A DNA stretch of 64,000 nt, taken from a virus. The position numbers were made by a program, and so were the translations under genes. The stretch lies in the IMG/VR virus record IMGVR_UViG_3300027625_000001; one strand, written 5' to 3'. The notes beneath the pieces are model-generated. The model was given only the letters and a program-made list of their open reading frames with translations, ran no database searches and had not been told where the DNA came from. Shown here in pieces: positions 2,188 to 3,910 of the stretch. Numbering within the stretch: position 1 is the first letter of the stretch; every line of letters begins with the position of its first letter.

Positions 2188-2736
2188 TCAGTCCTCCTCT
2201 TTTTCGGGGAATGGCTCGCCGCAGTTGCTGCATTTGGTTTTGCCCGGCCTACTGAACGCGCCGCACTCGGGGCACGCGGGGTTATTCCATGCGGCCTTGC
2301 AGCGACCGCCGGCGATCTCCATGAGCTGCACGAGCGCCTCGCCGCCGACCCCGACGTCGGGGACCTCGAAGGGTCGATCGTCGAGGACGAATTCAGCGTT
2401 GTCGTCGAACCATGACGGACCCGCACCCATCGCCATGTAGGCGAGGCTATGGCCGAAGGCCTCGGGACTCGATCGCGTGGGTGAGCCCTCATTCTCGCGC
2501 TCGTTCGCCGCGAGGGCCTCTTCGTAGAGTTCGTCAAGCTTCCTGCCGTTGCGCTTCTCGATCGCCTTCGCCCACTTCTCGGCGTAGGTGTGCGCTTCCT
2601 CTGGGACGCGCGGCATGATGTCCTCGATGCTCCTACCCCCGAGCCTCTCGCAGCCATGCTCCTCGACGTGATTGGACCAGGCGTCCGCCCAGATGAGCGA
2701 CGCCATCGCGTCCACGATCTCCGATCGCAAGCTCAT
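2188..2736 (-). CDS. hypothetical protein with C-terminal Cys cluster, family B (182 aa)
   Basis: Track ORF; its first about 90 nt plus 57 nt upstream are duplicated at 3762..3910. Confidence 0.6.
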   Translation of the reverse strand: MSLRSEIVDAMASLIWADAWSNHVEEHGCERLGGRSIEDIMPRVPEEAHTYAEKWAKAIEKRNGRKLDELYEEALAANERENEGSPTRSSPEAFGHSLAYMAMGAGPSWFDDNAEFVLDDRPFEVPDVGVGGEALVQLMEIAGGRCKAAWNNPACPECGAFSRPGKTKCSNCGEPFPEKEED

Positions 2737-2793
2737 CGTGACACCACGTGGTAATCCTCGGCGGAGAGCGCGTCGAGCGCGCAGTGCTCCGGC
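2646..2793. repeat. 148-bp direct repeat, copy 1 (about 95% identical to 3762..3910)
   Basis: Direct comparison of the two stretches; contains perfect 10-bp palindrome ACCACGTGGT just upstream of the ATG. Confidence 0.85.
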
Positions 2794-2808
2794 GCTTCGA
2801 GGGCTTTC

Positions 2809-3183
2809 CTAGTTCGCATCGCGACTCGTGCCGGTCAGTCCGTCGCGGATGATCTCGAGCTGCTCGCGCGTTGCTGCGTCCAAGCCTTTGCTTTCTGCCT
2901 CGAGCTGAAGGACGACGGAGAGTGCTTTCTGCCTGCACGTCTCCGCCTTCTCCTTTTTGAGCCTCTCCTTCTGCCCATTCAGCATGAGCGCGAGGCTGAC
3001 CGCCCAGAGCAAAAAGGCGCACTCGATGGACTCCACGAGCGGTTTGTAGTGAAAGCACAGGATGGATGTCGGCACGACCACGACGAGCAAGAAGGAAATC
3101 CCGACGCCGCCGATCCGTCGGTGCGCAGCACGAAAGGCGTTCTTGAGCGCGCTCGTCATCCTCGCCCCAATCTTACGTCCCAA
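2809..3183 (-). CDS. membrane protein (124 aa, 2 TM-like segments)
   Basis: Track ORF; hydrophobic helices; overlapping 2633..3058 ORF is Arg-rich. Confidence 0.55.
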   Translation of the reverse strand: MGRKIGARMTSALKNAFRAAHRRIGGVGISFLLVVVVPTSILCFHYKPLVESIECAFLLWAVSLALMLNGQKERLKKEKAETCRQKALSVVLQLEAESKGLDAATREQLEIIRDGLTGTSRDAN

Positions 3184-3362
3184 TACTTGCCCGGCATCTT
3201 GCGCATGAGCGACGCGAGGTAATCGATCCCCTCCTTCTGGGGCACATCAGCAAGATCGTACGATCTCTCTTCCCAGAACTCGGCGATGTTGCCGGCTTGG
3301 CCCATGAGCGCCGCGACGATCCGTTCCTTCTGCTCCTTTGTGAGTGCCATGTGCGTCTCCAT
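3156..3362 (-). CDS. hypothetical protein (68 aa)
   Basis: Track ORF; balanced composition. Confidence 0.5.
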   Translation of the reverse strand: METHMALTKEQKERIVAALMGQAGNIAEFWEERSYDLADVPQKEGIDYLASLMRKMPGKYWDVRLGRG

Positions 3363-3644
3363 TCAATCGATCGGATGCTCTTCGGCCCACCGCTCAACGG
3401 CGTCGAAAACCTTGTCGGGGTTCTGCGTCGACATCTCGTGGCCGCGAACCGGAATCTCGGTGTACCTCTGTCCAGCGTTCGGCAGCCCGTAGTCTACGGC
3501 GGAGTAGAAGTACGTGTACTTGCGAAAACCGGGTTCGCCGTGGCGCCAACGCCGGGCAAAAATCATGAAGCGCCGGTCTTCGCTCTTGGCGTAGATACCC
3601 GACTCGCCGATCTTCTTCAGCGTTGACGTGGTCCAGCGAATCAC
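3363..3644 (-). CDS. hypothetical protein (93 aa)
   Basis: Track ORF; adjacent to stop of previous gene. Confidence 0.55.
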   Translation of the reverse strand: MIRWTTSTLKKIGESGIYAKSEDRRFMIFARRWRHGEPGFRKYTYFYSAVDYGLPNAGQRYTEIPVRGHEMSTQNPDKVFDAVERWAEEHPID

Positions 3645-3676
3645 GTTGCCTCCGACCTAGTTCGCACAGGACTCCT

Positions 3677-3862
3677 TCAGCGTCTTGATCCAGTGCTGAG
3701 CGCACTTGTCGAGACCCGCGGGTTTCGGTGCCCTCGCCATGACGACCGCTTTCTTCCTGCACCCCCGAGCCTCTCGCAGCCATGCTCCTCGACGTGATTG
3801 GACCAGGCGTCCGCCCAGATGAGCGTCGCCATCGCGTCCACAATCTCCGATCGCAAGCTCAT
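3677..3862 (-). pseudogene. truncated duplicate of family B gene (only the first about 34 codons are homologous)
   Basis: ATG at 3860-3862 followed by MSLRSEIVDAMATLIWADAWSNHVEEHGCERLGG, identical to N-terminus of 2188..2736, then diverges into Arg/Ser-rich sequence. Confidence 0.5.
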
Positions 3863-3910
3863 CGTGACACCACGTGGTAATCCGCGACGGAGAGCGCGTC
3901 GAGCGCGCAC
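3762..3910. repeat. 148-bp direct repeat, copy 2
   Basis: Matches 2646..2793; here it spans the 3' end of gene 3859..4185 and the 5' end of the truncated family B copy. Confidence 0.85.

Follow-up and report, generated by a model that had tools for sequence, protein, structure and literature searches.

Duplicated gene junction around a three-gene cassette in an uncultivated, probably jumbo, phage: a possible scar of illegitimate insertion

In lambdoid phages, morons are reportedly extra genes that lie between genes adjacent in relatives. Such a set of genes is transcribed autonomously, from a promoter and up to a terminator of its own, and classic morons are not known to be flanked by target duplications of 150 nucleotides (nt). 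Mosaic joints, such as those of mycobacteriophages, are said to arise by illegitimate recombination, and in Campbell-type insertion-duplication a circle integrates by a single homologous crossover. T4-type phages carry ORFan cassettes flanked by PeSLs, as well as PeSL mini-circles (Arbiol et al. 2010, PMC2839356; Comeau et al. 2014, PMC4122927); a PeSL is a conserved intergenic motif made up of a promoter and a stem-loop and is present in many copies per genome (PMC2839356, PMC4122927). Here we describe a 152-nt direct repeat that brackets a cassette of three small genes (g93, g68 and g116) between the genes g108 and g182, in a stretch of 64,000 nt of viral DNA (IMG/VR record IMGVR_UViG_3300027625_000001; the whole stretch is called the window below). 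We lean towards reading the repeat as a scar left when DNA entered a hyperplastic region of a probable jumbo phage by illegitimate insertion, with the two joints staggered.

Of the systems described so far, ORFan cassettes flanked by PeSLs come closest in function. In both cases direct repeats bracket ORFans in the hyperplastic region of a large phage, the cassette has no recombinase of its own, and the repeats are long enough for general recombination to loop out or integrate it. Unlike a PeSL, however, the repeat described here is coding sequence, exists in exactly two copies, lacks promoter, terminator and stem-loop, and does not occur at the corresponding junctions in relatives; it would be the consequence of one insertion and not a pre-existing recombination site. 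With morons the cassette would share its position, as accessory genes between formerly adjacent genes, and perhaps also a deviating base composition, its guanine-plus-cytosine content being slightly below that of its surroundings (0.601 versus a window mean of 0.627, standard deviation 0.017; 6.3% of equal-sized windows are equally low). A sequence-only reading of this DNA had spoken of a moron cassette, but the strict sense of the term does not fit, since neither a promoter nor a terminator belonging to the cassette was detected. A scan limited to the sigma-70 consensus found no sigma-70-like promoter in window positions 1-8000, and no terminator-like site was found at the cassette ends or in or beside the repeat, the sole such sites of the cassette lying inside g93 and g116. 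Also unlike a moron, the cassette is co-directional with its neighbours in a packed, overlapping array and is flanked by the 152-nt duplication.

The abrupt change of relatedness near gene boundaries, the survival of products with intact genes and the varied contexts in which g93 is found are those of mosaic joints. Most described mosaic joints involve no duplication, whereas the joints here would have been staggered; with the recipient junction present twice, the event and its polarity are directly readable. As in a Campbell insertion, homology, insert and homology follow one another and both target genes are reconstituted, but neither a circular donor nor a vector or integrase has come to light at this locus, and either copy might be the donor-derived one. 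The locus is best filed as a mosaic joint of illegitimate recombination in which a long junction duplication has been kept.

Anatomy and reproducibility of the duplicated junction

The two copies of the repeat (Table 1) are identical at 147 of their 152 positions (96.7%; BLAST E = 5e-69, far past chance), and a 149-nt core reaches 97.3% identity. Start to start they are 1126 nt apart, with 974 nt (2787-3760) between them. The five mismatches (copy 1/copy 2, + strand) fall at 2700/3826, 2716/3842, 2758/3884, 2761/3887 and 2784/3910 and leave 65 and 41 nt as the longest mismatch-free runs. The sequence-only reading had recognised the repeat, although it placed copy 1 at 2646-2793, with a start about ten bases off, gave a spacing of 1116 bp that the measurement does not support, and put the identity slightly low, at about 95%. 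No other repeat within the 64-kb window exceeds 90% identity, the remaining repeat families being 64-80% identical, and the homology breaks off abruptly at both edges.

Read on the minus strand, each copy comprises the final 17 codons of g108, an ATGA in which the stop of g108 overlaps the start of g182, and the first 33-34 codons of g182. The content proposed earlier, namely the tail of one gene, a palindrome and the head of the next, is borne out by the open reading frame (ORF) list and the sequence. The palindrome ACCACGTGGT encodes YHVV in the g108 tail; it is confined to the two repeat copies and elsewhere in the window is no commoner than chance. Copy 1 does head the intact 182-amino-acid (aa) gene, and three small genes, one of them for a predicted membrane protein, do lie between the copies. 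The stub headed by copy 2 was correctly said to match g182 over 34 codons; it does not drift into junk, as had been suggested, but loses its homology at a breakpoint. Since the insert has no detectable similarity to the body of g182, to that of g108 or to the rest of the window, the stub is joined to unrelated sequence at that point.

Table 1. Features of the locus in window coordinates, listed in the order of transcription
Feature	Position	Strand	Description
g134	4195-4599	-	first in transcription order, before g108
g108, intact, 108 aa	3859..4185	-	in the ORF list; called as a gene in all Joint Genome Institute (JGI) contigs; final 17 codons within copy 2
Repeat copy 2	3761..3912	.	true 3' end of g108, ATGA overlap and first 33-34 codons of the g182 copy
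Stub ORF, 61 codons	3677..3862	-	codons 1-34 match g182 (33/34 identical); codons 35-61 from foreign sequence
Inserted segment, 974 nt	2787..3760	-	116-nt leader (3645-3760), g93, g68, g116 and 22 nt past the g116 stop
g93, 93 aa	3363..3644	-	GTG start; GGAGG ribosome-binding site
g68, 68 aa	3156..3362	-	member of a small family; PHROG 18336, E = 8e-6
g116, 116 aa, predicted membrane protein	2809..3159	-	two hydrophobic segments (hydropathy); start overlaps g68 stop (ATGA)
Remnant ORF, 28 codons	2733..2819	-	read directly; ATG inside the last g116 codons; final 17 codons (2736-2786) are the duplicated g108 tail
Repeat copy 1	2635..2786	.	g108-tail remnant, ATGA overlap and true 5' end of g182
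g182, intact, 182 aa	2188..2736	-	helical domain and C-terminal zinc ribbon

The arrangement recurs outside the window. Exact-protein look-ups with g182, g93 and g108 returned contigs that stem from numerous JGI samples and a single Logan assembly, produced by two assembly pipelines, and 16 distinct contigs span at least one junction, 11 of which read through both copies and the cassette. All 16 lead from g108 through the repeat into stub and cassette and from the cassette through the repeat into g182; none (0/16) leads from g108 through the repeat to g182 or from cassette through the repeat to cassette, which would be an empty-site junction and a circle or tandem junction, respectively. As the contigs differ from the window by only 0.04-0.24%, they sample one population, and the copy-specific bases are constant in every one of them except for a polymorphic T/C at 3887. 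That the assembly had collapsed the repeat, made a chimera of it or mixed several strains could have been suspected from the contigs that end in or near the repeat (L036 inside copy 2, L039 50 nt past copy 2, and three 28 nt past copy 1). Such an assembly artefact is scarcely credible and is taken as excluded, because 16 distinct contigs of different samples show the same linkage with the same copy-specific bases and 11 read through everything. The three short contigs beyond copy 1 (L016, L025 and L026, from different samples) all stop at window position 2607, on the g182 side; the contigs that read through have no single-nucleotide polymorphism there, and the 65-nt identical run does not account for the stop, which may be an assembly-graph branch caused by a minority variant inside g182.

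The substitutions that separate the copies can be polarised with the g108 homologue P0016, which is 67% identical and found on contigs of 150-218 kb. Its tail reads ...LRAEDYHVRSR, that of the copy 1 remnant ...LSAEDYHVVSR, and that of the functional g108 ...LSAADYHVVSR in some contigs and ...LSVADYHVVSR in the window. Since the same residues occur in the outgroup, the copy 1 remnant retains the ancestral A-E-D, and the functional tail carries a derived, fixed change of E to A and a derived, still segregating change of A to V. In the g182 head, the Ile7 codon ATC is common to g182 and all outgroups, and the stub has the derived ATT. The segregating site corresponds to position 3887, one of the five that distinguish the copies, where contigs have T or C (Val to Ala, eight codons before the end of g108; contig L007 has N). 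Gene conversion between the copies was considered for this site and rejected in favour of a recent g108 mutation, since outgroup and remnant agree in the alternative state.

Origin of the duplication

The g182 head and the g108 tail at the two edges of the insert are partial copies of complete neighbours, and the g108|g182 junction must therefore predate the insert; on this point, a junction duplication around inserted DNA, the sequence-only reading has stood. In the ancestor, g108 would have lain directly before g182, its stop overlapping the g182 start in an ATGA. About 1 kb of foreign DNA with g93, g68 and g116 would then have entered by illegitimate recombination, either through two non-homologous joints between co-replicating genomes or by a replicative template switch. 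The entry joint in the recipient would lie 33-34 codons inside g182, and the exit joint would precede the end of g108 by 17 codons, which places it about 150 nt upstream of the point of entry. With the recipient joints staggered in this manner, the intervening ~150 nt would have been duplicated. A clean insertion at the overlapping stop and start would damage one neighbour, and selection would have kept a recombinant in which both are whole, which could survive because the duplication leaves both flanking genes intact. In this form g108 would keep its native 3' end in copy 2, and g182 would keep, in copy 1, its native 5' end and the upstream sequence of translational coupling. The by-products would be a 61-codon chimeric stub coupled to g108, a 28-codon remnant ORF bridging g116 to g182, and the direct-repeat pair itself, which could delete the cassette by homologous recombination; the cassette is retained in every consensus assembly.

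The start of the stub overlaps the stop of g108 (ATGA), for which reason the stub is probably still translated; it spans only helix 1 of the g182 model. The remnant, which matches the g108 tail at 82% over 17 aa in tblastn, opens with an ATG in the end of g116 and closes with a stop that overlaps the g182 start (ATGA). It may for that reason keep g182 translationally coupled, so that a coupling chain from g116 through the remnant to g182 may persist.

In favour of an insertion scar are the abrupt loss of homology with no decayed remainder, the specificity of the repeat for the g108|g182 junction, the constant linkage in 16 contigs, the divergence of the copies beyond that of the population, the outgroup polarity, the packed array whose larger gaps the insert made, the hyperplastic setting, a second gene-tail remnant in the relative L017 and the want of any promoter, terminator or RNA feature in the repeat. 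Several observations weigh against it. On one hand, the postulated starting point has no living representative among the material searched: g108 lies next to g182 in no relative recovered by protein searches, and an uninterrupted g108|g182 junction was found in no genome searched by protein, DNA pattern or exact-protein look-ups, so that the ancestral state is read from the scar alone. The exact DNA pattern of the empty site gave zero matches in metagenome_contigs, a weak negative, since a control 33-mer regained only 2 of at least 16 known contigs. The donor context of the cassette was not found among the searched collections either, and the nearest relatives outside the population have only 55-67% protein identity (at least 98% within the population). 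Furthermore, the 116-nt leader shows no similarity to the genes that precede the g93 homologues in the relatives L027, L029 and L018 (shuffle p = 0.2-0.5). On the other hand, the joints say little of how they were made. Microhomology is weak, consisting of CA at one joint and of AGGA, offset by 2 nt, at the other, and for this reason the mechanisms are not distinguishable; the recombination at a short homology that had been proposed earlier is not demonstrated by so little. Finally, the repeat copies differ by 2.7-3.3%, compared with 0.04-0.24% within the population. Divergence so much greater than that of the population means either that the duplication long predates the sampled population or that the copies come from slightly different parents, and ~3% could equally fit two differing parents, that is, a route by homologous recombination.

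Such a route would be a Campbell-type integration, in which a circle with the cassette and one g108|g182 junction recombined homologously with the resident junction; the circle could have arisen as a mini-circle that looped out of some related genome, and a single step would give repeat, cassette and repeat. One crossover with a circle would give exactly this topology, mismatch-free stretches of 65 and 41 nt suffice for recombinase-mediated exchange, and the copy divergence fits a donor and a recipient that had already diverged. It has been shown experimentally in T4-type phages that mini-circles form between direct repeats flanking ORFans (PMC2839356, PMC4122927). We nevertheless regard this history as unlikely, though not far-fetched: the first joining of the cassette to a g108|g182 junction would still need an illegitimate event, the 16 contigs contain no circle or tandem junction and no empty site, and no second genome type with the g108|g182 junction was found.

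It had also been suggested that a tandem duplication was followed by replacement, which here would mean that g108-g182 was duplicated and that the cassette replaced the g182 body of the first unit together with the g108 body of the second. We consider such a history quite unlikely. Duplication is active in the region, as indicated by the nearby tandem paralogues g105 and g92 (4818-5359), which are 48% identical in aa and share a 68-nt DNA repeat (78%), and by the repeated g144 paralogues in the relative L018. More events would be needed, however, with three non-homologous joints against two for a staggered insertion, the ~720 nt supposedly replaced have left zero trace, and no relative has tandem g108-g182 units. 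The idea that the insert is a decayed tandem duplicate was rejected, as the insert has no residual similarity to the g182 or g108 bodies.

An insert flanked by direct repeats might also be a self-mobile element, whether a transposon with target-site duplication, an att-site integrative cassette or a homing-endonuclease cassette, and an IS1595-family transposase lies nearby in the relative L012. This explanation appears very improbable. In searches of Pfam, PHROG, NCBIfam and PADLOC, no transposase, integrase, homing endonuclease or defence protein was recognised in g93, g68 or g116, nor do these carry an HNH, GIY-YIG, LAGLIDADG or similar endonuclease domain; neither the cassette nor any neighbour from g134 through g128 was found to encode an integrase or recombinase, and no inverted repeats are present at the cassette ends. 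The repeat consists of coding sequence of two neighbours, and its 152 nt are an order of magnitude above the target duplications of transposons, which are short (2-15 bp) and directly abut the element ends.

Two further roles for the repeat were examined and ruled out. It is not a regulatory or RNA element, being without promoter, terminator, unusual fold (its RNA folds no better than shuffled sequences, z = -0.24) or matching Rfam family. It is not a recurrent motif either, with two copies only in 64 kb and a junction that is not conserved in relatives.

A last possibility combines insertion with later use. The 152-nt coding repeats could act as portable homology arms, and the stub and the 28-codon ORF could be expressed and functional. 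The cassette would then loop out as a mini-circle and re-enter a co-infecting relative with the g108|g182 junction, and the stub (g182 helix 1 with a foreign tail) and the bridging ORF might, for example, keep translational coupling through the insert. We hold this combination to be distinctly improbable; if true, it would provide a soil jumbo-phage lineage with a PeSL-like shuffling route that needs no regulatory motif.

Relatives and the hyperplastic region

The region around the locus is hyperplastic, as seen in relatives on contigs of 150-600 kb. Comparison with relatives that lack the cassette had been recommended, and such relatives exist: L008-L011 have the order g134-g108-g89-g83-g125-x-g128. 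They are, however, also without the g182-g144-g130 module and thus offer no empty site. In relatives g182 moves with its downstream neighbour g144 as a variable module. The g182-g144 module is inverted between other genes in L013/L014, and the g182 homologue stands behind three different upstream genes in L017, L018 and L012. Because L012, L013, L014, L017 and L018 have no common sequence in the 90 nt that precede their g182 homologues, the repeat represents the specific g108|g182 junction and not a shared linker. Homologues of g93 with 74-77% aa identity occur on two short contigs (P0018/L027 and P0019/L029) with different neighbours on both sides, one of these neighbours being homologous to a window gene 18 kb away. 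The occurrence of g93 in other contexts indicates that it is a real, conserved and mobile gene and that the three cassette genes are no fixed unit.

Beyond these contigs little was recovered. The collection viral_contigs holds no relative of g182, g93, g68 or g116 and none of the g182 family profile, a match in genome_contigs to a metagenome-assembled genome of Thermomicrobiales proved to be a spurious zinc-ribbon match, and the sole match among GenBank phages covers 75 nt inside g134.

Rearrangements of other kinds are visible in the same relatives. L017, whose g182 homologue is 64% identical in aa, lacks g125 and most of g128, and at L017:7453-7517 a 19-codon tail remnant of the CmpB-like g128 lies directly behind the g83 homologue, with an ATGA overlap; together with the g108 tail in copy 1, this makes two gene tails left at rearrangement joints in the phage family. 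On the 172-kb contig L012, a DDE transposase of the IS1595 family is encoded at 8465-9355, ~2 kb downstream of the g182 homologue, so that classical transposition also acts in this region of the phage family. Within the window, the zinc-ribbon protein gene g130 (1356-1748) has a 47% identical paralogue 30 kb away (31678-32286), with a 243-nt DNA repeat at 71%. For g144 (1752-2186) there is a 39% identical partial paralogue at ~25.2 kb (25136-25369) and another outside the window (L001:13287-13739), and L018 has up to three g144-like copies.

Genome context and meaning

The genes of the locus are all encoded on the minus strand, in a dense array with many 4-nt overlaps of stop and start. They are transcribed in the order g134, g108, stub ORF, g93, g68, g116, 28-codon remnant ORF, g182, g144, g130, g89, g83, g125 and g128, and non-coding gaps of any appreciable size (~214 nt and ~72 nt by annotation) occur only where the insert made them. 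Nothing useful was found for g93, g116, g108 and g182 in Pfam, PHROGs, NCBIfam or PADLOC. The AlphaFold2 model of g182 has a pLDDT (predicted local distance difference test score) of 81.7, and its fold matches in PDB and BFVD are limited to the C-terminal zinc ribbon. The g68 family comprises 40 representative proteins at E <= 1e-3, mostly of 65-90 aa and all without names; a match of g68 to a plant zinc-finger protein was discarded as spurious. The charged tail of g116 is probably helical. In the 116-nt leader between copy 2 and g93, a 27-codon ORF MARAPKPAGLDKCAQHWIKTLKESCAN (3657-3740, minus strand) ends in ...TGCGAACTAGG, the same 11 nt as the end of g116 (2808-2818); this match may be fortuitous or may be what is left of a related gene end. 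The tandem paralogues at 4818-5359 (minus strand) are adjacent genes of 105 and 92 aa, whose identity extends over the C-terminal 44 residues and whose products are rich in arginine and lysine.

The window as a whole is dense with small minus-strand genes, with neighbours that match PHROG families, and encodes RtcB, an RNA ligase, DNA methyltransferases, an ATP-dependent protease (PHROG 29662) and a clamp-loader-like ATPase. It is probably the accessory region of a jumbo phage, a reading that stays short of proof because no structural gene was found in the 64 kb. The RtcB tRNA-splicing ligase (E = 7e-85) lies near an RNA-ligase-like protein (42293-43138 and 48873-50297, minus strand), a pair that suggests a tRNA/RNA repair module. 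An 870-aa protein (43510-46122, minus strand) carries the major-vault-protein shoulder domain PF11978 (E = 1.5e-29) and the vault repeat PF17795, which is unexpected in a phage-like accessory region. A 69-nt direct repeat with 80% identity (18492-18560 and 63607-63675, 45 kb apart; TTCACG..CCTCGCT.CGCTCGCTC..) may be a recurring intergenic or regulatory motif.

The duplicated junction is a new example of a known process in phage genome evolution and introduces no new mechanism or system. Its value is that one gain of genes by a large, uncultivated phage has been recorded in unusually legible form: since both halves of the old gene boundary survive, the order of events would be readable without a reference genome, and the outgroup polarises the later substitutions. 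It would also show how insertions into overlapping, translationally coupled arrays can survive, in that the junction is duplicated and neither neighbour loses its end or its start context. Moreover, it marks a hyperplastic region where g93 and the g182-g144 module move between related genomes.

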